DNA of 51,314 bases, taken from IMG/VR virus record IMGVR_UViG_3300035490_000495. The stretch is one strand, 5' to 3'. How positions within the stretch are numbered: the first letter of the stretch is position 1; every line of letters begins with the position of its first letter. This stretch comes from a virus. This document shows, piece by piece, positions 13,641-49,075 of the stretch. Below the pieces are notes generated by a model. That model was given only the letters and a program-made list of their open reading frames with translations. It was not told the DNA's origin and searched no databases. The position numbers and the translations under genes are program-made.

Positions 13641-14891
13641 CTAGGAGGCGAGGACGGACGGCCGTCCCCGCTTCTCCTGTGCCTTTGCCGAGTCGAAGCT
13701 GACCCCGTAGTACCCGCCCTCCGAGAGCTTCTGCACGGCGGCGATGTGGTTGTCGATGAACCGCTGCGTGGGCTTCTCGGACTTCTCCTGCTTGTACACG
13801 TCGGAGGGGCGGACCTTCATCTCCTTCGCCACCGCCACGATGCTCAGGCCTGCTGCGATGCGTGCCGGGCGGGTGGGGTTGGAGAACACGGCGGACTGCC
13901 CTGCCGGGACGGCCGGGTTGTCTGCGGCGAACCGCTCGTACCACTGGCGGAGGCGTCCCAGGGACGCCTTGCCGATGGCCTGCTTGGTCAGCCCTGCGAC
14001 CTGTACCTGCGGGTGGCTCTCGCCGAGCCTCTTGCGGCTGCGGCGGTACTTCGCACGGTCGCGCTCCGTCCGTGCCACGAGGCGTGCCACTGAGGGCAGC
14101 GCCAGGAGCCTCTTGATGAGCGTCCTGCGGTCCTTGCCCACGGCGATGAGCGGGCGCTGGAAGTAGGCGGCGTCCTCCTTCTCGTAGTTCTGGTTGGGGA
14201 CCTCCTCGATGACCTCGTAGCGCCACGTGCGCCCCTTCCCGCAGTCAACCTCGGGAATCTCGTCCACGTCTGCGGGGTTGACCTTTATCGCCATCAGGTG
14301 CTCGCCGGAGAAGCTGGCGAGGTAGGCCCGCGAGCAGAAGTGGTAGCCCCTGGAGCAGGGGTTCTCGGGGTCCTTGTCCACTTCCCTGCGGTCCATCACC
14401 GGCACCTGCCCGATGTGGTTGTCAACGGTGTGCGAGTAGATGTCCTTGTAGTCCCCGTCCACCCGCTTGTAGGCGACGAAGCACCCGTCGTCGGTGATGG
14501 GCATGCTGTAGCGCTGTAGGAAGTCATAGAGCCCCTGGATGGCCTTGGGGTTGGGGTTCTGGTACAGGTTGTCCATGAACCGCAGCATGTTGGTCACGGG
14601 CTGCCCGTGCTCGACGAGCGTGACCATCATGCGGGTCAGGGAGGAGTCCACCTCGGAGCCCTTGTAGAACACCTTGCCCTCGCGCACCTCCACGTTGCCG
14701 TGGCTGCGGTTGGAGATGGACTGCGCGAGGTTCACCAGGGCCGGGACCCGGTCCCACTTCTTGCCCTTGAGGGCCCTTACCATGCGCTTGAACGTCGGGT
14801 GGCTGGCGAGGAGCTGGAACGGCCTCCCGCCCACCAGTACCGACACGAAGTTGTCCTGCACTACATAGGGGACTGTCGCTGCCTTTGCCAT
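13641..14891 (-). CDS. rIIB: rIIB-like protein (416 aa)
   Basis: Strong match to recalled T4 rIIB: NPNPKAIQGLYDFLQRYSMPITDDGCFVAYKRV...ENPCSRGYHFCSRAYL...GKGRTWRYEVIEEV vs T4 NPSQKAVSRLFDFLVANDIEITEDGYFYAWKVV...TQTCSRGLHVCSKSYI...AKMRTCQYEVVEDV. Lies directly downstream of the rIIA-like gene. Confidence 0.8.
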   Translation of the reverse strand: MAKAATVPYVVQDNFVSVLVGGRPFQLLASHPTFKRMVRALKGKKWDRVPALVNLAQSISNRSHGNVEVREGKVFYKGSEVDSSLTRMMVTLVEHGQPVTNMLRFMDNLYQNPNPKAIQGLYDFLQRYSMPITDDGCFVAYKRVDGDYKDIYSHTVDNHIGQVPVMDRREVDKDPENPCSRGYHFCSRAYLASFSGEHLMAIKVNPADVDEIPEVDCGKGRTWRYEVIEEVPNQNYEKEDAAYFQRPLIAVGKDRRTLIKRLLALPSVARLVARTERDRAKYRRSRKRLGESHPQVQVAGLTKQAIGKASLGRLRQWYERFAADNPAVPAGQSAVFSNPTRPARIAAGLSIVAVAKEMKVRPSDVYKQEKSEKPTQRFIDNHIAAVQKLSEGGYYGVSFDSAKAQEKRGRPSVLAS

Positions 14892-23654: not shown

Positions 23655-23733
23655 TGGTATCCCCGGCAGGATTTGAACCTGCGACCTTCGGTTTAGGAAA
23701 CCGCTGCTCTGGTCCAGGCTGAGCTACGGGGAC
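23655..23733 (-). tRNA. tRNA-Arg(CCT)
   Basis: Hand-folded cloverleaf: acceptor GTCCCCG/CGGGGAT, D GCTC..GAGC, anticodon arm GCGGT-TTCCTAA-ACCGA, T arm GCAGG-TTCAAAT-CCTGC, A73, encoded CCA. Confidence 0.7.
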
Positions 23734-23762
23734 ACATTCCATGCTGTTCGTTCTCCCTAAAA

Positions 23763-23838
23763 TGGAAGCCCCGGAGGGAGTCTAACCCTCGACCTGCCGC
23801 TTAGGAGGCGGCCGCTCTATACGCTGAGCTACGGGGCC
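23763..23838 (-). tRNA. tRNA-Arg(CCT), second copy with a different body
   Basis: Acceptor GGCCCCG/CGGGGCT, anticodon arm GCCGC-CTCCTAA-GCGGC, T loop TTAGACT, U73, CCA encoded. Confidence 0.7.
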
Positions 23839-23852
23839 AAAAGCTACTTGCA

Positions 23853-23993
23853 AGCCAACGTGGTTACGTTCACGTTGTAGTTGACGGCAGCAAACTTGGC
23901 CTTCTTCCCGAGGGCCTTACGGAGCTGCTTGCGCAAGGCCTTCATCTCCGACTCTGGAACATCGGGGGCACATACCAGGAGTGCAATTCTCAT
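23853..23993 (-). CDS. small ORF (46 aa, MRIALLVCAPDVPESEMKALRKQLRKALGKKAKFAAVNYNVNVTTLACK)
   Basis: ATG at 23991-23993 with a GAGGGTG RBS-like sequence; lies between tRNAs. Confidence 0.25.
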
Positions 23994-24022
23994 CTTCACC
24001 CTCGTTGGACCTGCCGCAAAGC

Positions 24023-24322
24023 CTAATCTCCGCCGCCATCGCCGCCAGCGTCTCCGCCAGCGTCCGCGCCAGCATCGGCGTCAGCATCCGGCGTCTCTTC
24101 CTCTGCCGGGCTTGGCTGTGATGCCGTCTCCTCTTCCTCGTCCCCCCCTGCGACTATCAGCCAGTATGCCAGGGGGACATCGCCGCCATCGTCTTTCTGG
24201 ACGCTCGTGCAGGCCGCTGGCCTCGGGCAGCGGTGCGCCGGGCGCTTTACCGGCCATAGGAGCACGACCGCCAGTATGAAGAGGACAGCCCCTATTACCA
24301 GGGCTTGTGACCGTACATGCAT
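24023..24322 (-). CDS. small membrane protein with an acidic GAD-repeat tail (99 aa)
   Basis: N-terminal hydrophobic helix ALVIGAVLFILAVVLLWP; the C-terminal DADAGADAGGDAGGDGGGD is encoded by gccgcc/agcgtc tandem repeats. Confidence 0.4.
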   Translation of the reverse strand: MHVRSQALVIGAVLFILAVVLLWPVKRPAHRCPRPAACTSVQKDDGGDVPLAYWLIVAGGDEEEETASQPSPAEEETPDADADAGADAGGDAGGDGGGD

Positions 24323-24335
24323 ACGGCTCCTTGCT

Positions 24336-24413
24336 TGGAAGCCCCGGTGGGATTTGAACCCACGGCCTTGCGGGTAGAAGCCGCCTGCTCTCGTTCCGCT
24401 GAGCTACGGGGCC
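24336..24413 (-). tRNA. tRNA-Arg(TCT)
   Basis: Acceptor GGCCCCG/CGGGGCT, anticodon arm GGCGG-CTTCTAC-CCGCA, T arm GTGGG-TTCAAAT-CCCAC, CCA encoded. Confidence 0.7.
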
Positions 24414-24570
24414 GAATGTGTGCCCGTGATAGGCTCACGGTGCCGAGGCCCTACCCCCTTGCGATGGATAGCTGCCCGTTCGCTGGACATTTTGGATGGC
24501 CGTCTTGGAACGGGCCGAAGGTCATCCAGCCAGGTTGGCGGCCTTTGGGGTCTCCCCCGCCGGGCCATGC

Positions 24571-25122
24571 TTACTCCTTGTCTAAGACGGCGTTCCAGTA
24601 GAGCCAGGTCTCCCAGTCCCTCCACTCCGGCCGCATGGTCTTGATATGCAGCTTGAAGTTGTACCTCGGGTCGCTGGGCTTCGGGGCCACTGGCCTGGAC
24701 AGGAGCGCCATGCCGGCCTGCTCCGGGGTCCTGCCGCCCTTCGTCTTGTTGCACCTCATGCACGCCGTGACCGTGTTCTCCCAGGTCGTCTTGCCGCCCT
24801 GGCACTGCGGTATGACGTGGTCCGTGGTGTACTCGTGCGTCCTGATGGTCTTGCCGCAGTACTGGCATGAGGCGTTGTCACGGACTAACAGGTTCCGCCT
24901 CGTGCAGGGGACGGACTGCCGCCTGCGCCGTACCCAGGCATTGCGCACCCGGATGACCCTGGGCATGCCCATCTCGAAGTACTGGCTGTGCAGTACCTTG
25001 CCAGCCTCGTCCTCCTTGACTATCCGGGCACGGTCCTTGGTCCATAGCCTGACCGCCTCCTGCCAAGAGCAGAAGCCGACCGGCGTCCAGTTCATGTCGA
25101 GGACCAGGCAGTCATGGCTCAT
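24571..25122 (-). CDS. HNH homing endonuclease (183 aa) inserted in the tRNA array
   Basis: CQYCGK...HEYTTDHVIPQCQGGKTTWENTVTACMRCNKTKG = canonical HNH with two CxxC pairs. Confidence 0.75.
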   Translation of the reverse strand: MSHDCLVLDMNWTPVGFCSWQEAVRLWTKDRARIVKEDEAGKVLHSQYFEMGMPRVIRVRNAWVRRRRQSVPCTRRNLLVRDNASCQYCGKTIRTHEYTTDHVIPQCQGGKTTWENTVTACMRCNKTKGGRTPEQAGMALLSRPVAPKPSDPRYNFKLHIKTMRPEWRDWETWLYWNAVLDKE

Positions 25123-25276
25123 AGGTCACCCCCTTACTAAGGGGAGCGGAAAACTGTATAGGCGGGGGAAAGGCCGGATTTTATAGCCTTAAGCGACCGG
25201 CAGCCATTAAGGAGCATGGGCGCTGTGTGCGCTCAGACCCCTGCCTACCTTCCACTTACATAATACCTCAGAAAAT

Positions 25277-25363
25277 TGGCAGGGGCGGAGGGACTCGAAC
25301 CCCCGAAACGCCGTAGCGTGGCGGTTTTGGAGACCGCTGCCGTTGCCGCTGGGCCACGCCCCT
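25277..25363 (-). tRNA. class-II (long variable arm) tRNA with Ser-like body and anticodon CCA; isotype ambiguous
   Basis: 87 nt. Acceptor AGGGGCG/CGCCCCT, G73, CCA encoded; 3-bp D stem; anticodon arm GCGGT-CTCCAAA-ACCGC (U33, A37); 16-nt variable arm C-ACGC-TACG-GCGT-TTC; T arm GGGGG-TTCGAGT-CCCTC. Confidence 0.6.
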
Positions 25364-25369
25364 GCAAAC

Positions 25370-25444
25370 TGGCGACCTGGAGAGGATTTGAACCCCTAAG
25401 TCCGGTTTTGGAGACCGGCAGTTTAGCCGTTAGCTTACCAGGCC
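25370..25444 (-). tRNA. tRNA-Trp(CCA), canonical class I
   Basis: Acceptor GGCCTGG/CCAGGTC, anticodon arm CCGGT-CTCCAAA-ACCGG, T arm AGGGG-TTCAAAT-CCTCT, G73, CCA encoded; 6 nt from the class-II CCA tRNA. Confidence 0.7.
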
Positions 25445-25529
25445 TTAAGAATTAGGGCCAGCGTCCTTCCTGTTGAACGAAGGCACGGTCAGGCTCCTAG
25501 GGGCCTGGCCACTGCTACCATTAAGGCTA

Positions 25530-25680
25530 CGCAGCACGGTGTGCCTGCGGGATTCGGACCCGCATTTCTGGCATCCAGCTTGGTGCCCGTGGCGGGAATC
25601 GAACCCGCATACAGCCCCTTGCGGGGGCTGCTTCGGTGGGCGATAACGTGATTCCCTACACCCCGTAGGGTGGCCAGATT
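25530..25680 (-). ncRNA. tRNA-like fragments: two T-arm hairpins (GCGGG-TCCGAAT-CCCGC and GCGGG-TTCGATT-CCCGC), the second followed by CACGGGC-A-CCA, without a foldable 5' half
   Basis: Motifs seen directly; I could not find complementary 5' acceptor strands, so these may be tRNA pseudogenes or a non-canonical RNA. Confidence 0.2.
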
Positions 25681-25863
25681 ATCCCTGGCCTCCGGGCGTC
25701 CCGCCCCTTTCGGTTCCTCCGCAACTCGCTCCCACCGAGGCGTTCTCTCGTTGTACGCCGCTGTGCCTGTTCGCATACACGGGCAAAGCTCGGAGGGCCG
25801 CAGGCCGACTCGCTACACCCGGATGGGTACCGGGCTGCCGCTGTGCCTGTGGCCCTCGATTAC

Positions 25864-25939
25864 TGGTAGCGGCGGCAGGATTTGAACCTGCGACCTTCGG
25901 CTTATGAGACCGCTGCGCTCCCGACTGCGCCACGCCGCC
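25864..25939 (-). tRNA. tRNA-Met(CAT) (elongator-type or Ile2-type; not resolved)
   Basis: Acceptor GGCGGCG/CGCCGCT, D GCGC..GCGC, anticodon loop CTCATAA, T arm GCAGG-TTCAAAT-CCTGC, A73, CCA encoded. Confidence 0.7.
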
Positions 25940-26053
25940 ACGAAACCTTGGCACGCCTTGTCCAGCGACTTGCCTGCGGGGTCCTAGAGGGTGCGTACGC
26001 TGCTCTAAGGTTAGCCGCCTGCGGTCATCTCCGAATCGGCGTGCCTGCTAGGG

Positions 26054-26123
26054 ACATCGGGATGGGATTTGAACCCATGACCTTCCGGCATACCGGACGC
26101 TCTACCGACTGAGCTACCCCACG
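26054..26123 (-). tRNA. aberrant tRNA-like gene / probable pseudogene: canonical D and T arms but anticodon arm 3 nt short (TCCGG-TATG-CCGGA)
   Basis: TAGCTCAGTCGGTAGAGC D arm and ATGGG-TTCAAAT-CCCAT T arm are canonical; acceptor CGTGGGG/CCCGATG has one G-G mismatch; only 15 nt lie between the D stem and the variable region. Confidence 0.4.
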
Positions 26124-26133
26124 TTCCCCGAGA

Positions 26134-26210
26134 TGGTAGCGGGAATGGGAATCGAACCCACCTGTAAGAGGCTTATGAGACCCCTAAACTCACCAGAGTT
26201 CTATCCCGCA
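26134..26210 (-). tRNA. tRNA with CAT anticodon, possibly initiator-like (unpaired 1:72)
   Basis: 3' TCCCGCT-A-CCA pairs with 5' (T)GCGGGA leaving position 1 unpaired; anticodon arm GGGGT-CTCATAA-GCCTC; T arm GTGGG-TTCGATT-CCCAT. Confidence 0.6.
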
Positions 26211-26215
26211 GCAAA

Positions 26216-26291
26216 TGGTTGCGGGGGCCGGATTTGAACCGGCGACCTTGAGGTTATGAGCCTCACGAGCTACCAGGCTGCTCCACCCCGC
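26216..26291 (-). tRNA. tRNA with CAT anticodon (third CAT tRNA)
   Basis: D GAGC..GCTC, anticodon arm TGAGG-CTCATAA-CCTCA, T arm GCCGG-TTCAAAT-CCGGC, acceptor (A)GCGGGG/CCCCGCA with 1:72 A/A, A73, CCA. Confidence 0.65.
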
Positions 26292-26379
26292 TGTAAGCCC
26301 GGCGGTGCCTTGTCCAGATTAGACGACCGGGGGGCTAGGCCCCTCAGGTGGGGTTCGGACCCACATCCCGCCTTGAACT

Positions 26380-26455
26380 TGGCTGGGAGGGGAGGAGTCG
26401 AACCTCTCATTCCGGGGTTCAGAGCCCCGTGGCCTACCGATTAGCCGACCTCCCA
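26380..26455 (-). tRNA. tRNA-Gln(CTG)
   Basis: U1-A72, G73 (Gln-like), acceptor TGGGAGG/CCTCCCA, anticodon arm CGGGG-CTCTGAA-CCCCG, T loop TTCGACT, CCA encoded. Confidence 0.7.
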
Positions 26456-26463
26456 GCAAAACT

Positions 26464-26537
26464 TGGCTCCGAGGCAGGGATTCGGACCCCGATAGCTGCG
26501 TCCAGAGCGCAGCGGCCTACCGTTAGCCGACCTCGGA
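26464..26537 (-). tRNA. tRNA-Gln(CTG), second copy; T loop TCCGAAT (C55)
   Basis: Acceptor TCCGAGG/CCTCGGA, G73, anticodon arm CTGCG-CTCTGGA-CGCAG, T arm CGGGG-TCCGAAT-CCCTG. Confidence 0.65.
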
Positions 26538-26547
26538 ACAACAAACC

Positions 26548-26622
26548 TGGTGCCAACGTCCGGAATCGAACCGGCCACTCCTGCTCTTCAGGCAGGCGCT
26601 ATACCATCCTAGCTCCGTCGGC
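26548..26622 (-). tRNA. tRNA-Phe(GAA)
   Basis: Acceptor GCCGACG/CGTTGGC, D GCTA..TAGC, anticodon arm CCTGC-CTGAAGA-GCAGG, T loop TTCGATT, A73, CCA. Confidence 0.75.
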
Positions 26623-26631
26623 GAAAAAACT

Positions 26632-26708
26632 TGGTGGGTCGGGAGGGAATCGAACCCTCAACCTTGGGCTTAAGAGGCCCCTGCTCTGCCTAGTTAAGCT
26701 ACCGACCC
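26632..26708 (-). tRNA. tRNA-Lys(CTT)
   Basis: Acceptor GGGTCGG/CCGACCC (perfect), anticodon arm GGGGC-CTCTTAA-GCCCA, T arm GAGGG-TTCGATT-CCCTC, A73, CCA. Confidence 0.7.
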
Positions 26709-26802
26709 GAATCGGTGACGGACATAGGGTCTTTATGCCCCTGGCCGCAGCCGCCACCCGCCCTGGTTAGCCTCGCCATGGCAGCAGGCTTCCGTCATAA
26801 TC

Positions 26803-26880
26803 TGGTACCGCCGAGAGGACTCGAACCTCCAACCCTCCGGGTAAGAGCCGGGTGCGCTTGTCCGGTTGCGCCACGGCGGC
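26803..26880 (-). tRNA. tRNA-Lys(CTT), second copy
   Basis: Acceptor GCCGCCG/CGGCGGT, anticodon arm CCCGG-CTCTTAC-CCGGA, T arm GGAGG-TTCGAGT-CCTCT, A73, CCA. Confidence 0.65.
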
Positions 26881-26886
26881 ATATCC

Positions 26887-26965
26887 TGGTCGGAGCGGCG
26901 GATTGGGTGCCCGCAGCCTTCCGCTTAAAAGGCGGCTACTCTTGACCCGTTTGAGTTACGCTCCG
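26887..26965 (-). tRNA. tRNA-Lys(TTT) with non-canonical T-loop (CACCCAA instead of TTCRANN)
   Basis: Acceptor CGGAGCG/CGCTCCG (perfect), D ACTC..GAGT, anticodon arm GCCGC-CTTTTAA-GCGGA; T stem GCGGG/TCCGC encloses loop CACCCAA; A73, CCA. Confidence 0.5.
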
Positions 26966-26972
26966 CTAAACT

Positions 26973-27054
26973 TGGCCATCGTATCCCGACTCGAACGGGC
27001 ATCTCCAGGAAAAGGCCCCCGGCAAGGCGACCATCCGCCTCCCTTTTCACGATG
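26973..27054 (-). tRNA. non-canonical tRNA-like gene (82 nt): clean acceptor and T arm plus CCA, but the body folds only with an expanded D-loop and an 8-nt anticodon loop
   Basis: Acceptor CATCGTG/TACGATG, G73, CCA; T arm GCCCG-TTCGAGT-CGGGA; the best body fold is D stem AAGG/CCTT with a 14-nt loop and anticodon stem CCGGG/CCTGG enclosing GGCCTTTT. Confidence 0.35.
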
Positions 27055-27055
27055 G

Positions 27056-27130
27056 TGGCTCAGGAGGAGGGAATCGAACCCCCAACCACTCGGTTAACAG
27101 CCGAGCGCTCTACCGTTGAGCTACCCCTGA
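27056..27130 (-). tRNA. tRNA-Asn(GTT), canonical
   Basis: U1-A72, G73, anticodon arm CTCGG-CTGTTAA-CCGAG (identical loop to E. coli tRNA-Asn), T arm GGGGG-TTCGATT-CCCTC, CCA encoded. Confidence 0.8.
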
Positions 27131-27218
27131 ATACTCTGAAGCAGCCCTCTTCTGAGCCGCTTCCTAGCTAATAGGGGGGCAATCTATTGATGGCCCGTAG
27201 GCCGCCCCCCTCTAAACT

Positions 27219-27297
27219 TGGTCGGCGTGGTGAGATTCGGACTCACGGCCTCTCGCTCCCGAAGCGAGCGCTCTGAACCAGGCTGAGCTACACACCG
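27219..27297 (-). tRNA. tRNA-Pro(CGG); T loop TCCGAAT (C55)
   Basis: C1-G72, A73 (Pro-like), acceptor CGGTGTG/CACGCCG, anticodon arm CTCGC-TTCGGGA-GCGAG, T arm GTGAG-TCCGAAT-CTCAC. Confidence 0.75.
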
Positions 27298-27304
27298 AGC
27301 TACT

Positions 27305-27381
27305 TGGTCAGGGCGGCAGGATTTGAACCTGCGACAACCGGTATCCGAAACCGGGACTCTTCCAGGCTGAGCTACGCCCTG
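27305..27381 (-). tRNA. tRNA-Pro(CGG), second copy
   Basis: Acceptor CAGGGCG/CGCCCTG, anticodon arm CCGGT-TTCGGAT-ACCGG, T arm GCAGG-TTCAAAT-CCTGC, A73, CCA. Confidence 0.7.
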
Positions 27382-27390
27382 CTAAGAACC

Positions 27391-27409
27391 AGCGTGCCAA
27401 CGGCACGCT
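27391..27409. other. perfect 8-bp hairpin agcgtgcc-aac-ggcacgct between two tRNA-Pro genes
   Basis: Seen directly; possible processing or attenuation element within the tRNA operon. Confidence 0.35.
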
Positions 27410-27413
27410 AAAC

Positions 27414-27490
27414 TGGTCAGGGCGGTGGGATTTGAACCCACGGCAACTCGCCTCCAAAGCGAGGACTCTTCCAGGCTGAGCTACGCCCTG
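27414..27490 (-). tRNA. tRNA-Pro(TGG)
   Basis: Same acceptor as the previous gene (CAGGGCG); anticodon arm CTCGC-TTTGGAG-GCGAG; T arm GTGGG-TTCAAAT-CCCAC. Confidence 0.75.
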
Positions 27491-27497
27491 CTAAACT

Positions 27498-27574
27498 TGG
27501 TCAGGGTGGAGGGATTTGAACCCACGGCCTCATGCACCCCAAGCATGCGCTCCACCAGGCTGAGCTACACCCTG
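27498..27574 (-). tRNA. tRNA-Pro(GGG)
   Basis: Acceptor CAGGGTG/CACCCTG, anticodon arm CATGC-TTGGGGT-GCATG, T loop TTCAAAT, A73, CCA. Confidence 0.7.
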
Positions 27575-27586
27575 ACATCTATAACT

Positions 27587-27663
27587 TGGTCCCGCCTTCC
27601 CGAGTCGAACGGGATTCTCTCCCTCTTCAGGGGAGCGCCATGCACCGCATCGGCCTAAGCGGG
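27587..27663 (-). tRNA. tRNA-Phe(GAA), second copy with a different body
   Basis: Acceptor CCCGCTT/AGGCGGG, D GCCG..TGGC, anticodon arm CTCCC-CTGAAGA-GGGAG, T arm TCCCG-TTCGACT-CGGGA, A73, CCA. Confidence 0.65.
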
Positions 27664-27671
27664 CCTAAACT

Positions 27672-27760
27672 TGGCTGGGGCAGGAGGAATCGAACCCCCG
27701 GTGCCCGTGAGGGCGCTTGATTAACAGTCAAGTGGCTTTACCAGCGTCGCCTACACCCCA
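27672..27760 (-). tRNA. class-II (long variable arm) tRNA with Ser-like body and anticodon GTT; isotype ambiguous
   Basis: 89 nt. Acceptor TGGGGTG/TGCCCCA, G73, CCA encoded; 3-bp D stem GGC/GCC with 12-nt loop; anticodon arm CTTGA-CTGTTAA-TCAAG (perfect); 16-nt variable arm C-GCCC-TCAC-GGGC-ACC; T arm GGGGG-TTCGATT-CCTCC. Confidence 0.6.
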
Positions 27761-27847
27761 GCAATCAATCTGTTCGGGCGGGACATCCCGGCCAGTCGCC
27801 TCGTACGCCCATCAGCGTTGTCAACAGCGTGGCCACCCACCGCAAAC

Positions 27848-27924
27848 TGGAACCCCCGGAGGGAGTCGAACCCTCGGCATCCGGTTTCGAGGACCGGCAC
27901 CCTATCCGTCTGGGCCACGGGGGC
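27848..27924 (-). tRNA. tRNA-Arg(TCG)? with C at position 33
   Basis: Acceptor GCCCCCG/CGGGGGT, anticodon arm CCGGT-CCTCGAA-ACCGG (perfect stem forces loop CCTCGAA), T arm GAGGG-TTCGACT-CCCTC, U73, CCA. Confidence 0.55.
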
Positions 27925-28020
27925 CTGAACTGGTGCCGGTGTGATGCAAAGGGTGTTGCAGGTGTCCTTGGGATGCCTCCCACTGCTCACCTTGCGGCCG
28001 GCCGCTCTACCGGCACAGAA

Positions 28021-28099
28021 TGGAAGCCCCGGAGGGATTTGAACCCTCGACCTTCGGTTTCGTAGACCGCTGCTCTGGTCCAGGCTGAGCTACGGGGCC
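28021..28099 (-). tRNA. tRNA-Arg(ACG)
   Basis: Acceptor GGCCCCG/CGGGGCT, anticodon arm GCGGT-CTACGAA-ACCGA, T arm GAGGG-TTCAAAT-CCCTC, CCA encoded. Confidence 0.75.
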
Positions 28100-28104
28100 A
28101 AAAC

Positions 28105-28181
28105 TGGAAGTCCCGGTGGGATTCGGACCCACGACCTCTTCGTTCGGAGCGAAGCGCCCTAGTCCGCTGGGCGACGGGACC
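28105..28181 (-). tRNA. tRNA-Arg(CCG); T loop TCCGAAT (C55)
   Basis: Acceptor GGTCCCG/CGGGACT, D GCCC..GGGC, anticodon arm CTTCG-CTCCGAA-CGAAG, T arm GTGGG-TCCGAAT-CCCAC, CCA. Confidence 0.7.
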
Positions 28182-28340
28182 TCAAAGAGACAGGGCTGCT
28201 CTGCTTGTTTGAGCTATAGGATGCTGGCCATCCCAGAGGGATTCTCACCCTCATCTCGCCCCCTGACTCGCTGGCGGCCATGATTAACGACCTTTGGCTC
28301 TTAGTACCCGGAACGGTCATGCGGGTCTGCCAGCTTGATT

Positions 28341-28417
28341 TGGGGTGACCGGTGGGACTCTAACCCACTTGGACTGCGTTCACAGCGCAGCGCCTCGTTC
28401 GCTTCGGCATCGGCCAC
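28341..28417 (-). tRNA. tRNA-His(GTG)
   Basis: C73 discriminator (His identity), acceptor GTGGCCG/CGGTCAC, anticodon arm CTGCG-CTGTGAA-CGCAG, T arm GTGGG-TTAGAGT-CCCAC, CCA encoded; no encoded G-1. Confidence 0.75.
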
Positions 28418-33260: not shown

Positions 33261-33636
33261 CCTTCCTCCCTTCCCAACGCCCGGCCTCGTCCTCCTTCTG
33301 GCTGAACGGCGTGGCATAGTACGGTGCAGGTCCCGCAAACGAGCAGGCCCCGGCATGGGCCTTGCCCCGGGCCGCCCCGCAGACATGGCAACGGGGCCCG
33401 TCTATCTCAGACTCCGGGCGTATTCTGTCCGGGCGGCAGGCCAGGCTGTCCCCTTCCGTATGCCTCCACCTGCCCCGCATGTACAGCGTGCGCTGCCTGA
33501 AGCCGGCCACGGGCCTGGTCTCGTAGATAGGCTGGTTGCAGTAGTAGCAGAGGAGCTGCCAGTCCTTCGGGACCCAGGGGTACTCGGGGTTCGAGGGGGG
33601 TATCAGTTCTCTTATTCCAGCCATTTCTACACCCAT
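33247..33636 (-). CDS. Cys-rich hypothetical protein (129 aa)
   Basis: ATG ORF; LLCYYCNQPIY...CRPD...CHVCGAARGKAHAGAC. Confidence 0.4.
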   Translation of the reverse strand: MGVEMAGIRELIPPSNPEYPWVPKDWQLLCYYCNQPIYETRPVAGFRQRTLYMRGRWRHTEGDSLACRPDRIRPESEIDGPRCHVCGAARGKAHAGACSFAGPAPYYATPFSQKEDEAGRWEGRKDEDT

Positions 33637-34562
33637 CCCCTCTGCCTCCAGTGCTTGAGCATTGCCCCCGCCACGATACGGCTCACCGCCTCACGGTCGC
33701 ACCTCGGGGGGAGGGGGGAGGCCATCACGGCCGCCGCCACCTCTGCCCTGAGCTGGCCGTAGAGGTCGAGCACGTCCGCCAGGCCTACCTTCCCCGTCCT
33801 GATGTCGAGGAGGAGCTGCCTCTCCGGCCGCGGGAAGGTCATGTGCCCTGTCCTGAGAAGCTCCAGGCACTCGTGCATGCTCCGTATCATGTGCATCCCG
33901 GCCTTGGTGTCGTATCCGAACTCCTCCTGCTGCGCCTTCCTGGTGCCGTGCCGCCCGGTCCCCTCACCCAGCATGCGCTTGAACTGGCTGTCCCCCATGC
34001 CCACGAAGGAGTCCTTCAGGGCCTTGGACAGGAACTCCCCTGTGTTGGGGACGATGTCGGTGTCCCATACTGTCGCCGTAGGGGCCTTCCTGTAGCGCTC
34101 GGCGCACTCCGGGTCGTACCTATGGCTGTCCCAGTTGATGCAGCCTGGGTGCTCGCACTGCTGCTCGTCGTACGGGCAGGTGAACTCCCTCTTCGGCGTC
34201 AGGGACATGTCCCTGATGGCGTCCGGCACGAACAGGAAGGAGAGGGCAGTAGGGTTGCCCTTGAGGGCCAGCCCTGCCCACCGCCTCAGGCTGTATGCCT
34301 TGACGTCCTTGTCCTTTCCTGTGTTCCTGCGGCTGTCGGGGGCAGTGCTCGTGCTGACGTGCCCCCTCTTCCTGGGGTTCTCGCTGTCGAGGTGAAGCTC
34401 TTCCTCTGGCCTCCCTACGAACACGCCGCACACGTCCAGGTCCGCCGTGTCGCTGAGCCTTGCCCCGTGCTGCCAGGAGCCGCCCGCAAAGGCCAGTATG
34501 ATGCCCTCGGGGTCCATGCCCCCGAGCCTCGCCATCTCGTCCTTCAGCCTGCCGTAGAACAT
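33627..34562 (-). CDS. Pol-beta-superfamily nucleotidyltransferase (cGAS/OAS/MNT-like signature), 311 aa
   Basis: ILAFAGGSWQHGARLSDTADLDVCGVFV matches hG[GS]x9-13Dh[DE]h; followed by a helical C-terminal region. Confidence 0.55.
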   Translation of the reverse strand: MFYGRLKDEMARLGGMDPEGIILAFAGGSWQHGARLSDTADLDVCGVFVGRPEEELHLDSENPRKRGHVSTSTAPDSRRNTGKDKDVKAYSLRRWAGLALKGNPTALSFLFVPDAIRDMSLTPKREFTCPYDEQQCEHPGCINWDSHRYDPECAERYRKAPTATVWDTDIVPNTGEFLSKALKDSFVGMGDSQFKRMLGEGTGRHGTRKAQQEEFGYDTKAGMHMIRSMHECLELLRTGHMTFPRPERQLLLDIRTGKVGLADVLDLYGQLRAEVAAAVMASPLPPRCDREAVSRIVAGAMLKHWRQRGWV

Positions 34563-42594: not shown

Positions 42595-43086
42595 CTATCC
42601 AGCCAGGCCTGCATCTGTCCCCCCTGCGGGTTCTACCCCTACGGCCCTCAGCCACTTCTCCTCCGGCTCCGACAGCGGGGAGGGGTAGGGGTCGCCGGGC
42701 TTCCACAGGTGCCTGTGGTCCGGGAGCCTGCCCAGCTCGGGGTCCCTGATGCCCATCCACACCCATATGGACATCTGGATGGCGTTGATGATGTTCCAGG
42801 CCGCCTGGGAGAGGTGGGGCTGCGTCCTCTCGCCCGCTATGTGCTGGTCGATATGGCGCTTGCCGCTGTCGAGCAGGTCCTCGACAGGCATGCCATGCTC
42901 CCAGTTCCTCCACCCCCGCCCCAGGTTGCCGTCCTCGTATATCCTGGAGACCAAGAAGAGGGCGTCAGGGGGCATCCAGACAAGCCTGCCCTTGCCGCGC
43001 CTGGAGTCCCTGGTGGCCCCCGTGCCGTAGACGGTGTCCTTGGCCTCTATCTTCTTGAACCCTGTGTCAGGAGTCTCTTCGCCCAT
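42595..43086 (-). CDS. hypothetical protein (163 aa from MGEETPDTGF...)
   Basis: ATG ORF; no motif assigned. Confidence 0.45.
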   Translation of the reverse strand: MGEETPDTGFKKIEAKDTVYGTGATRDSRRGKGRLVWMPPDALFLVSRIYEDGNLGRGWRNWEHGMPVEDLLDSGKRHIDQHIAGERTQPHLSQAAWNIINAIQMSIWVWMGIRDPELGRLPDHRHLWKPGDPYPSPLSEPEEKWLRAVGVEPAGGTDAGLAG

Positions 43087-43145
43087 GCTGCCTAATACCA
43101 CCCGAGAAGAACGACTTTCCATCCTTTACATAGGGGGAGATTCCT

Positions 43146-46602: not shown

Positions 46603-47241
46603 CTACTCCTTCGGCAGCTCCACGGGCTCCAGGTCGTCGAAGATTACCGGTATGGTTTTCTTGAACTCCAGCAGCAGCGGCACCGCTATCTCCTTCATCT
46701 GGGGGTGCGCCCCAGGGTTGCACGCCCTCTTCCTGAAGAAGTTCCTCCAGCTCGTCAGGTCGAGGCTCATGATAATCTCCGTCTTCAGGCTGTTGGGGAG
46801 GACGGAGCGGGCTATCTCCGGCCTTGCCCCCAGCCTGCGAAGCTCGTTGTATGCCTTCTCGGCCTCGCTCATGGCGTACATCCAGACATCGAGCTGCGCC
46901 GGGGTCATGTGCCGGCCGATAGCGATGACCTCGATGTTCCCCGCCTTGGCATAGTCGCAGTAGCGGGTGGACTCCTGGAGGTAGGCGGCGACACGGTGCC
47001 GGACTATCTCATGGCTCACCCCCCGGTCGCAGACTATCCTGACCGTGATGATGTGGTGGTCGGCGATGCCCTCGTGCTTGAGGGTATGGAGGAGCCTCCC
47101 GACGAACGCCTTGGTCTGCTCCATGTCCCCCGTCTTGCCCTCGGACTTGTAGCAGTTGCGGGCGTACTTCTCTATCTGGCGCAGGATGAGGCTGCCGTCG
47201 TAGTCGTTCTCGATATGGGCCTCTGCCGTGCGGAGAACCAT
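46603..47241 (-). CDS. thyX: flavin-dependent thymidylate synthase ThyX
   Basis: ThyX signature HEIVRHRVAAYLQESTRY (RHRxxxxxxxS); start taken at MVLRTAEAHI. Confidence 0.8.
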   Translation of the reverse strand: MVLRTAEAHIENDYDGSLILRQIEKYARNCYKSEGKTGDMEQTKAFVGRLLHTLKHEGIADHHIITVRIVCDRGVSHEIVRHRVAAYLQESTRYCDYAKAGNIEVIAIGRHMTPAQLDVWMYAMSEAEKAYNELRRLGARPEIARSVLPNSLKTEIIMSLDLTSWRNFFRKRACNPGAHPQMKEIAVPLLLEFKKTIPVIFDDLEPVELPKE

Positions 47242-47251
47242 CTTTCCCTCC

Positions 47252-47755
47252 CTAGACAGGCACCCCGGCCACGGCACCCTCGTCGAAGGCGCTCTCGCCT
47301 TCGTCCTCCGGGGTGGGGTCGCCCAGCCCCGGCAGGGACGGGCCGCCCACGCAGGTCGGGCAGGGCCCTGGAGGGGGGGGCATTACCCCCTCGCCCTCTG
47401 TCCCTACCGGCTCGTATACAGGCTCCAGCTTCACCAGCTCGTAGGAGATGATGGCGTCCTTGATGGCCTCCCACGTCTCGTGGTTGAACGGGCCGTCCGG
47501 CAGGTCGTTGCCCCGGTGCCAGTCCTCCCCGGCCCTCGTCTTCCTGCTGTTGGCCCCGCACCCCAGGTAGGTCGGGGTGGCATGGATGTAGTAGGTATGG
47601 CTGTCGGTGCAGAGGATATAGCGCAGGTGCCCTGGCGTGGATGGCCTGCTGTCCTCCCTGACGTGCTCCTTAAGGCTGCCGTGGCGTACCGCTATCTCCT
47701 TGAGCCACTCCAGCAGCGTGTCCCTCGTCCTTTCCAGCGTCATTGTCTCGCTCAT
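47252..47755 (-). CDS. hypothetical protein (167 aa)
   Basis: ATG ORF; the C-terminus is Pro/Gly/Glu-rich. Confidence 0.45.
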   Translation of the reverse strand: MSETMTLERTRDTLLEWLKEIAVRHGSLKEHVREDSRPSTPGHLRYILCTDSHTYYIHATPTYLGCGANSRKTRAGEDWHRGNDLPDGPFNHETWEAIKDAIISYELVKLEPVYEPVGTEGEGVMPPPPGPCPTCVGGPSLPGLGDPTPEDEGESAFDEGAVAGVPV

Positions 47756-48416: not shown

Positions 48417-48653
48417 CTAGGCTATCCCCCCGCTCAGGCCCTCGGCCCTCATCCAGCGCATGAAGTGGCTCTTGTACTCAAAGGGCACCAGGGCCTCAGT
48501 AATGCTGCCAGGCGAGCCTACTGAACGCCAGCCCTTGCACTTCCTGACTGGCCGGACCGAGAACGTCTGGAGGTCGGCCCTCTGCCTCCTGGTCATCCTG
48601 CCCACTACCTCCATGAGGACTATCATCAGTACACCTCCTGCACCGTGAAGCAC
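48417..48653 (-). CDS. hypothetical protein (78 aa)
   Basis: ATG ORF abutting the next start. Confidence 0.35.
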   Translation of the reverse strand: MLHGAGGVLMIVLMEVVGRMTRRQRADLQTFSVRPVRKCKGWRSVGSPGSITEALVPFEYKSHFMRWMRAEGLSGGIA

Positions 48654-49075
48654 CTCGCCCTCTCCCCCCTGGTGAAGGATACGGCCATGGGGATGAGCCA
48701 GCGCCCGTTGGGCACCAGGTCGAGGTCCTGCACGTCCCTGGTCTTATGGATGGATACTTCCTCGTCGGTCTGGGTACGGCACTCCCATGCGTCCCCCCTG
48801 GCCCAGAAGAACCACACTGTGGCCTCGGGGAAGTCCAGGCGGGCCAGGGGGCTCCAGTCGTCCCATGCTACCCCGGCCTCCTCCCTGAACTCCCGGCGCA
48901 TGCCATCCAGCGGGGTCTCCCCGTCCTGGAGCTTGCCGCCTATCCCGTTCAGGAGGCCCCTCTGCCACTCGGGGCGCTTCTTGCGGATGAGGACTACTGC
49001 CTCCATGTAGGGGCTGAACATGAACCCGACACAGTAGAGTCTCTTCCCCTCAGGGAGTGATTCCCAGGCGTCCAT
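48626..49075 (-). CDS. NUDIX hydrolase
   Basis: Nudix box GGKLQDGETPLDGMRREFREEAGV (Gx5Ex7REUxEExGU). Confidence 0.8.
   Translation of the reverse strand: MDAWESLPEGKRLYCVGFMFSPYMEAVVLIRKKRPEWQRGLLNGIGGKLQDGETPLDGMRREFREEAGVAWDDWSPLARLDFPEATVWFFWARGDAWECRTQTDEEVSIHKTRDVQDLDLVPNGRWLIPMAVSFTRGERARCFTVQEVY

Follow-up and report, generated by a model that had tools for sequence, protein, structure and literature searches.

The 51,314-nucleotide viral stretch IMGVR_UViG_3300035490_000495 (the window, throughout), part of a large phage and with a GC content of 64%, carries on its minus strand an 87-nucleotide (nt) tRNA gene that combines the tryptophan anticodon CCA with a hairpin-forming variable (V) region of 16 nt. 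A review describes such a long arm as specific to the serine and leucine tRNAs and the tyrosine tRNA of bacteria (PMC4033280), and no description of a long-arm tRNA-Trp or of phage long-arm class-I isoacceptors was found in the literature searched, which lacked most subscription-journal papers. We propose that the gene probably encodes a functional phage tRNA-Trp isoacceptor that is charged with tryptophan and whose variable region has been expanded. Judged by its sequence, the molecule is best described as a tryptophan identity mounted on a class-II-type core, and its charging with serine appears unlikely.

The gene scores 49.6 bits against the Rfam tRNA family RF00005 (gathering score 29). 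Its acceptor stem of seven base pairs, which include A1-U72, G2-C71, G3-C70, G4-C69 and G5-C68, leads to G73 at 25280 and to an encoded CCA at 25277-25279. After U8 and G9 comes a D stem of three pairs (G10-C25, C11-G24 and C12-G23) with C13 and C22 left unpaired; the anticodon stem GCGGU/ACCGC closes the loop CUCCAAA, and the T arm (GGGGG/CCCTC) is normal, with one G·U pair. U8, A14, G18 G19, U33, A37, a canonical T loop (TTCGA motif) and the encoded CCA are all retained, and in its RF00005 score, cloverleaf and invariant bases the gene has what is expected of a functional elongator tRNA. An earlier note, made from the sequence of the window, had described an 87-nt tRNA with these stems, the CCA anticodon, G73, an encoded CCA and a 16-nt V arm, and ARAGORN and Rfam bear out all of these structural statements, on the minus strand. 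The minimum-free-energy (MFE) fold is not the cloverleaf, which lies 3.4 kcal/mol above it; the same gap spans 0-7.3 kcal/mol in the other 24 tRNAs of the surrounding array, a range that includes the value for this gene. The MFE is uninformative as a test of structure here, many tRNAs of this GC-rich array also folding away from the cloverleaf. Both folds contain the V hairpin. The gene is not an assembly artefact, because the identical 87 nt occur in six independent metagenome contigs.

The identity set published for bacterial tRNA-Trp comprises G73, C34 C35 A36, A1-U72, G2-C71, G3-C70, G4-C69 and G5-C68 (PMC9976931). The gene holds every element of this set, including the pair of features, CCA and G73, that had been singled out earlier as relevant to the tryptophanyl-tRNA synthetase (TrpRS). 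Canonical class-I tRNA-Trp shares with it the loop CUCCAAA, G73, the pairs A1-U72 and G2-C71 to G5-C68, the anticodon stem and the T arm, but has A9, a V region of 4-5 nt and a 4-bp D stem, whereas the window gene has G9, a 16-nt V region with a hairpin, a 3-bp D stem and a C13·C22 mismatch. A V region of 4-7 nt was found in 103 of 105 sampled phage tRNA(CCA) genes. The comparison with serine goes differently at the acceptor. The pairs G1-C72 and G2-C71 are "absolutely conserved" in most bacterial tRNASer (PMC9976931); the gene has the second of them, with A1-U72 in place of the first. Phage Ser genes carry G1-C72 in 47/49 cases and A3-U70 in 45/49, the corresponding third pair of our gene being G3-C70. 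Long-arm phage CCA genes, by which we mean tRNA(CCA) of at least 82 nt, have U72 in 55/65 and G73 in 64/65, and their spectrum at 1:72 is that of class-I phage Trp tRNAs. G73 itself, being common to Ser and Trp, is uninformative between the two. The earlier note had taken the long arm, G73 and the 3-bp D stem together as hallmarks of tRNA-Ser; this is not supported, as G73 occurs in 98/98 class-I phage Trp tRNAs and the other two are general class-II features.

Scored by stem, the log-odds of the acceptor with N73 are +5.5 for class-I Trp, +10.2 for long-arm Trp and -7.7 for Ser; those of the anticodon stem are +7.9, +5.8 and +4.2, and those of the D stem -5.9, +2.6 and +2.3, in the same order. 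By BLAST, all 42 deposited-phage records matched by the gene sit under Trp genes, 41 of them annotated tRNA-Trp and one, a 75-nt homolog, tRNA-Leu. The matches in Corynebacterium phages, this last one among them, were considered as further long-arm genes and rejected: they are ordinary 75-nt Trp genes, and the Leu label is an annotation slip. In complete E. coli genomes, 5,426 out of 5,426, the long-arm gene matches the sole tRNA-Trp gene and never a Ser gene. Aligned end to end with phage Trp tRNAs of 74-77 nt, the sequence reads as a class-I Trp body with an inserted V hairpin and a remodelled D stem. Once the V region and the anticodon loop are removed, its nearest neighbours are Trp tRNAs of both classes, and the best Ser match of the stripped sequence, at 0.66, falls under those of Met, Cys and Thr.

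The geometry of the arm is not that of serine either. The gene and a companion with the anticodon GTT elsewhere in the array share one layout: one unpaired 5′ base, a 4-bp stem, a 4-nt loop and three unpaired 3′ bases. Phage Ser arms mostly have a stem of 5-7 bp (96/116) and 0-1 unpaired 3′ bases (97/116), neither of which is found here. Phage Leu arms have two unpaired 3′ bases in 57/84 and a stem mostly of 3-4 bp; phage Tyr arms have three unpaired 3′ bases in 30/45 and a 3-bp stem in 29/45; the long-arm Trp arms, for their part, have three in 34/65 and a stem of 3-4 bp in 49/65. The unpaired bases at the base of the arm are regarded as setting its orientation and recognition (PMC9976931), and by this measure the arm is of the Tyr type and not of the Ser type. 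Bacterial tRNA-Tyr resembles our gene in its single 5′ unpaired base, its stem of 3-4 bp, its loop of 3-4 nt, its three unpaired 3′ bases and its 3-bp D stem, but it differs in A73 (56/56), G1-C72 and the anticodon GUA. The log-odds of the gene's acceptor for Tyr are -4.5, and G73 is an antideterminant for TyrRS (PMC9976931 Table 3). Bacterial tRNA-Ser has in common with it the long arm, G73, G2-C71, C11-G24 and a D-arm flavour of U8-G9-GCC...GGC-A26, and is set apart by G1-C72, A3-U70, an arm stem 5-7 bp long and its 0-1 unpaired 3′ bases. Of the label "class-II, Ser-like" given earlier, the class-II shape thus stands and the D arm leans towards Ser, but the acceptor is of the Trp type and the arm of the Tyr type.

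The hairpin of the V region, worth -5.3 kcal/mol by itself, ends in a C(UACG)G cap, and the arm of a distant relative (L072) in C(UUCG)G, both UNCG-type tetraloops; GNRA loops dominate in the other long-arm families (26/49). The V regions of long-arm Trp genes fold with a mean z of -4.1, 47 of the 65 beating at least 95% of their shuffles, a folding strength comparable to that of genuine class-II tRNAs. In a set of 49 non-redundant genes, the three V-stem pairs closest to the loop each take 5-6 different standard forms, and the ortholog of the GTT companion in a diverged relative has lost exactly one pair of its V stem (GCCC/GGGC to GCC/GGC). Because V regions beat their shuffles, pair types vary and that ortholog lost one whole pair, the arm has, as far as sequence comparison goes, the marks of a helix under selection.

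Relatives of the window were found only by a metagenome scan; IMG/VR as searched did not contain the window's own contig. The gene is 100% identical in a diverged relative (contigs L249/L251), where its flanks are 78-95% identical and the other array tRNAs 92-100% identical. A more distant relative (L072/L253) has as counterpart a long-arm CCA gene of 85 nt, whose acceptor, anticodon and T arms are the same and whose V-arm sequence is wholly different. Homologous class-II CCA tRNAs in related phages, which the earlier note had suggested looking for, therefore exist. Among 50,697 deposited phage records, we found no close relative of the window, the array giving short tRNA matches only.

The long arm is not confined to this lineage. 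A pattern scan for the CUCCAAA loop, class-II spacing and the T-loop motif found long-arm tRNA(CCA) genes in at least 83 viral contigs (83/120 among the matches listed), and these genes make up several families of unrelated sequence. Among 185,579 cellular genomes, 9/120 among the matches listed were long-arm CCA genes, most of them in dense tRNA clusters; by these counts (83/120 vs 9/120 among the matches listed) the long-arm form is strongly enriched in viruses over cells. Its share of phage tRNA(CCA) is about 2-3% (2/105 in an unbiased scan, plus one re-found locus). Long-arm Lys, His, Met, Asn, Cys, Ile, Arg and other tRNAs occur in the same viral loci, and in about 4% of phage tRNAs of class-I isotypes the V region reaches 10 nt or more. 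The long-arm tRNAs of isotypes whose discriminator is not G keep their own discriminator in 54/61 cases and have G73 in 0/61, which shows that the long arm is added to tRNAs whose identity stays their own. We define a set of phage long-arm variants of class-I isoacceptors as tRNAs of 7/5 architecture whose V region of at least 10 nt forms a short hairpin, with a class-I anticodon, the discriminator of that isotype and a place in a phage tRNA cluster, and the window gene has all of these properties.

Two other groups of phage tRNAs came to light. An 87-nt tRNA(CUU) with a class-II body, annotated as tRNA-Lys, occurs in cultured Caulobacter phages (RB23, CcrBL9 and CcrSC). The RB23 gene (L254 2496-2582; MZ574433.1 77315-77401), with anticodon CTT, has G1-C72, G2-C71, G3-C70 and U73; since U73 is not the Lys discriminator but is seen in phage Ser tRNAs, this tRNA might be charged against its own anticodon. 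A recurring "tRNA-Ile(TAT)" of 90-94 nt, with a V region of about 20 nt and a CCAGAT(T/A)AG-like motif, appears in many unrelated viral contigs (L002, L008, L260, L291, L300, L304, L309 and L323).

The GTT companion had been reported earlier as a second gene of the same architecture, and it does have the same 1+4+4+4+3 arm. Its MFE structure folds straight into a five-arm cloverleaf, and it has U1-A72 and G73. The log-odds of its acceptor (Asn +4.4, Gln +10.5, Ser -12.2) make that acceptor clearly Asn/Gln-like and strongly anti-Ser in sequence. Its BLAST matches are partial, to mycobacteriophage tRNA-Tyr and Pseudomonas phage tRNA-Asn; its body has no clear nearest isotype, and GTA lies one base from GTT.

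Directly beside the long-arm gene lies a 75-nt class-I tRNA(CCA), at the 6-nt distance given by the earlier note. Its acceptor (G1-C72, G2·U71, C3-G70, C4-G69, U5-A68) is, by sequence, less canonical for bacterial Trp than that of the long-arm gene, which on the identity rules would therefore be the better TrpRS substrate of the two. An apparent counterpart of this neighbour in L072 (9143-9218) shares its D arm and has the standard acceptor AGGGGCG/CGCCCCU, and so the acceptor stem of the class-I gene looks to have been replaced in the window lineage. The two Trp genes are 216 nt apart in L251 vs 6 nt in the window.

Based on the above data, we propose that the host TrpRS would charge the long-arm tRNA, which would read UGG as tryptophan. 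A short hairpin of high stability would have arisen by expansion of its variable region, and its D stem would have been remodelled to a class-II-type core (G9, C12-G23, unpaired 13:22). The arm would change the form that the molecule presents to host nucleases or toxins directed at tRNAs, with synthetase identity untouched, and the phage would keep a working Trp decoder while host-type tRNA-Trp was attacked, the plain Trp neighbour being the other half of a two-version hedge. This anti-defence role is our leading guess, and a tentative one. The analogy that we favour is the tRNA-Tyr of T5/SP15 (Azam et al. 2024, PMC11555353; PMC12673091), in which an altered phage variable arm beats a tRNA-cleaving defence with decoding intact: its longer variable loop resists Retron-Eco7 PtuAB, and deletion or swap of the loop restores the defence (PMC12673091). 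In that case an existing class-II arm is longer by about 5 nt and the effect was demonstrated experimentally, whereas ours would be a class-I isoacceptor with a gained arm. The idea is plausible because of this resistance, because Septu cuts tRNA-Tyr in the variable loop (PMC13096335), because VapC25/29/33/37/39 cleave tRNA-Trp (PMC5175351) and because the window has RNA-repair genes.

Several observations weigh against this proposal. G2-C71, C11-G24, G30-C40, G73 and the long arm all add to serine identity in some systems, so that some serylation of the tRNA is conceivable on its sequence. Ser accounts for 12 of the 40 D arms nearest to that of the gene, the closest few being Met, Val, Tyr and Thr. 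On home-made isotype covariance models, one for Trp (R1) built from 50 phage class-I Trp tRNAs and one for Ser (R2) built from 39 phage Ser tRNAs, both poorly specific, the gene reaches 62.7 bits for Ser vs 52.6 bits for Trp. As to defence, nothing in the window ties the arm to a particular system, and the two Trp copies have the same anticodon loop, so that an anticodon-loop nuclease would probably not tell them apart by the loop itself.

The alternative that survives best, though we consider it unlikely, is that the arm is a tolerated quirk: a V insertion became fixed, its hairpin was kept since an unstructured insert would be harmful, and the molecule is an ordinary tRNA-Trp with an idle arm. 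The low frequency of the arm among phage tRNA(CCA) genes would fit, as would the variation of its length and sequence between families, and engineered tRNAs tolerate added V-arm hairpins (PMC7590224). Yet several unrelated sequence families and many isotypes gained or kept the arm, and it comes with coordinated changes of the core (G9, 3-bp D stem). An idle arm also sits poorly with the convergence on one geometry (1/3-4 bp/tetraloop/3), with the hyperstable tetraloops and with the viral enrichment among the matches listed.

Quite unlikely, in our judgement, is a mistranslating tRNA, charged with serine or dually, by which the seryl-tRNA synthetase (SerRS) would load serine on a UGG-reading molecule and replace Trp by Ser. 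Serine identity comes mainly from the variable arm and the tertiary shape, the anticodon being ignored (PMC9976931), and the serine-compatible bases, the Ser-leaning D arm and the higher Ser score just listed would all suit it. The isotype-model check that the earlier note had proposed favours Ser at face value, but after calibration it speaks for neither side. On the Ser model, the median of held-out true Ser tRNAs (n=18) is about 74 bits, with 9/18 at 80-94 bits and 11/18 above 62.7; Tyr tRNAs score 46-59 bits, other long-arm tRNAs (Asn, Cys, Thr, Met, Trp) 51-73 bits and some plain class-I tRNAs up to 65 bits. The 62.7 bits fall inside this non-Ser range, and most of the support of the Ser model for a Ser-like molecule is thereby taken away. 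The Trp model is unspecific too, the window's Asn, Lys and Gln tRNAs scoring 54-60 bits on it; the class-I Trp neighbour scores 64.3 bits. Against serine charging stand, further, A1-U72 and G3-C70 in place of G1-C72 and A3-U70, with the negative acceptor log-odds, an arm of 4 bp with three unpaired 3′ bases, and the full Trp identity set, which would make TrpRS a strong competitor.

Precedents for charging against the anticodon do exist in the nematode nev-tRNAs and the bacterial allo-tRNAs, which like our gene join a long V arm to the anticodon of a class-I amino acid. The nev-tRNAs are derived from tRNA-Leu, have A73 in 115/115 and are charged with leucine contrary to their anticodon (Hamashima et al. 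2012, PMC3333845); the allo-tRNAs have an 8/4 or 9/3 acceptor/T architecture and G73 or U73, suggesting serylation (Mukai et al. 2017, PMC5389517). Unlike them, the window gene has the standard 7/5 architecture and identity elements that fit its own anticodon, and it lacks their combination of a class-II parent's identity elements with a foreign anticodon. The absence of G73 from the 61 long-arm tRNAs of other isotypes is likewise the opposite of the nev-tRNAs, which keep the A73 of their parent. The gene is, moreover, strictly conserved beside a normal Trp tRNA, and the Trp content of 13 long window open reading frames (ORFs), 1.86% of residues, is weak evidence that UGG is not avoided in the window. 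For a UGG-vs-Trp alignment, the RNA ligase and RlaP proteins of the window had no PDB relatives by sequence.

Still less probable is a decoy or sponge, which would titrate a tRNA-Trp-directed host nuclease, toxin or other tRNA-binding defence protein and would not serve amino-acid delivery. The separate class-I Trp copy could do the decoding and the window has RNA-repair genes, but the long-arm gene keeps all its features for charging and for the ribosome (the Trp identity set, the T loop, G18 G19, U33, A37 and CCA) and would by identity rules be a better TrpRS substrate than that class-I copy. The long-arm form is, besides, the only CCA tRNA in 74/84 loci that have a CCA tRNA, these loci being partial and selected for the long-arm form. 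Lastly, the readings of the gene as a tRNA-Ser(CGA) in decay or newly mutated or as a sequencing error, each raised in the earlier note, and that of an assembly error are refuted: CCA is one substitution from CGA and the long arm and G73 are present, but six independent contigs are identical, identity is complete in a relative with diverged flanks, the relatives carry a CCA gene and not a tRNA-Ser(CGA), the L072 version of 85 nt has a different arm sequence, the acceptor is of the Trp type with all tRNA invariants intact, and at least 83 other viral contigs carry long-arm CCA genes.

Table 1. Positions of the long-arm tRNA gene, its parts and other features of the window.
Feature	Position	Strand	Basis or remark
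Long-arm tRNA(CCA), 87 nt	25277..25363	-	ARAGORN tRNA(cca); Rfam RF00005
5′ acceptor strand AGGGGCG	25357..25363	-	Pairs with 25281-25287 (CGCCCCT), 7 bp
Anticodon CCA (positions 34-36)	25328..25330	-	Sequence, ARAGORN
Variable region C-ACGC-UACG-GCGU-UUC, 16 nt	25305..25320	-	4-bp hairpin, three unpaired 3′ bases
Neighbouring class-I tRNA(CCA), 75 nt	25370..25444	-	ARAGORN; 6 nt upstream of the long-arm gene
Long-arm tRNA, anticodon GTT	27672..27760	-	ARAGORN; V region C-GCCC-UCAC-GGGC-ACC (1-4-4-4-3)
Class-I tRNA-Asn(GTT), partner of the long-arm GTT gene	27056..27130	-	ARAGORN
tRNA array	23655..28417	-	25 ARAGORN genes and tRNA-like remnants, all on the minus strand
HNH homing-type endonuclease gene, directly 3′ of the long-arm tRNA(CCA)	24571..25122	-	Pfam HNH_5 2.8e-17; phrog_16726 3.9e-32
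HNH-RNA ligase fusion	6367..7338	-	Pfam RNA_ligase 3.9e-30; phrog_24030 1.2e-80
RlaP-family nucleotidyltransferase, "RNA repair pathway"	33627..34562	-	PF10127 6.3e-13; phrog_388 9.8e-39

Nearly all tRNAs of the array encode their own CCA, and most anticodons are present in two divergent copies; divergent duplicates are seen for Trp, Asn, Lys CTT, Gln CTG, Phe GAA, Arg CCT and Pro CGG, and Met occurs three times. The array looks like two tRNA sets merged or retained as alternatives. In L072, a 91-nt long-arm tRNA-Lys(TTT) at 14471-14561 adjoins a 74-nt tRNA-Lys(TTT), the same plain-plus-armed pairing as in the Trp and Asn pairs of the window. ARAGORN and Rfam find no Ser, Leu or Tyr tRNA gene in the window. 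Further tRNA-like elements lie on the minus strand of the array. The one at 26051-26124, which ARAGORN calls tRNA-??? and which scores 51 bits against the Rfam tRNA family, has a 4-nt "anticodon loop" (CCGG-UAUG-CCGG), ends in CCC and not CCA, and is kept in contigs of the same phage. The one at 26890-26965, missed by ARAGORN, scores 42.4 bits against the Rfam family and has the loop CUUUUAA (Lys UUU) and a T loop of CACCCAA instead of TTCRANT. Two weak tRNA-like spacer remnants, at 25587-25665 and 26976-27054, reach 17-18 bits on the home-made Trp model; the former has an intact T arm and a hairpin, CAGCCCC-CGCAA-GGGGCUG, at the expected site of the anticodon arm.

RNA repair of the RNA-ligase type is used against tRNA nucleases. 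Pfam and PHROGs recognised no synthetase gene and no tRNA nuclease gene in the window; among the other products encoded there are rIIA, rIIB, ThyX and a radical SAM protein, together with a vault-shoulder protein and a MazZ-like domain. The MazZ-like dATP/dGTP diphosphohydrolase N-terminal domain (PF18909), ThyX and a NUDIX protein are clustered at 42595-43122, 46603-47277 and 48626-49075, all on the minus strand. The MazZ-like domain raises the question of a modified DNA base, and no PurZ-like protein was recognised in the window. An 810-amino-acid protein encoded at 1605-4037 on the minus strand, with major-vault-protein shoulder (PF11978, 1e-22) and repeat (PF17795, 2e-10) domains, is unusual for a phage.

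The long-arm Trp gene is of interest beyond an ordinary tRNA because of the class-level pattern of long-arm phage tRNAs to which it belongs. In the long-arm exceptions already known, the nev-tRNAs and allo-tRNAs, it is the class-II body that decides the charging, whereas here the identity elements fit the gene's own anticodon, and an identity-matched long arm is found on dozens of other phage tRNAs of many isotypes. For annotation, this means that long-arm genes should be called by their identity elements and not by arm length or isotype-model score alone; for tRNA engineering, the long-arm phage tRNAs are ready-made scaffolds. If our proposal is confirmed, TrpRS, other synthetases of class-I tRNAs, EF-Tu and the ribosome would accept an extra arm in nature, the gain of an arm would be independent of synthetase identity, and phages would have a reason for gaining it. 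It is possible, and we suggest it with reserve, that phages repeatedly equip class-I isoacceptors (such as Trp, Asn, Lys, His, Met and Cys) with a compact, tetraloop-capped arm and a class-II core, with identity kept, as a general route to "non-host" tRNAs. Should this be true, host immunity that cleaves or modifies tRNAs would not see the armed ones, or the phage's own destruction of host tRNA would spare them, and arrays that hold a plain and an armed copy of one anticodon would be hedges against different defences.

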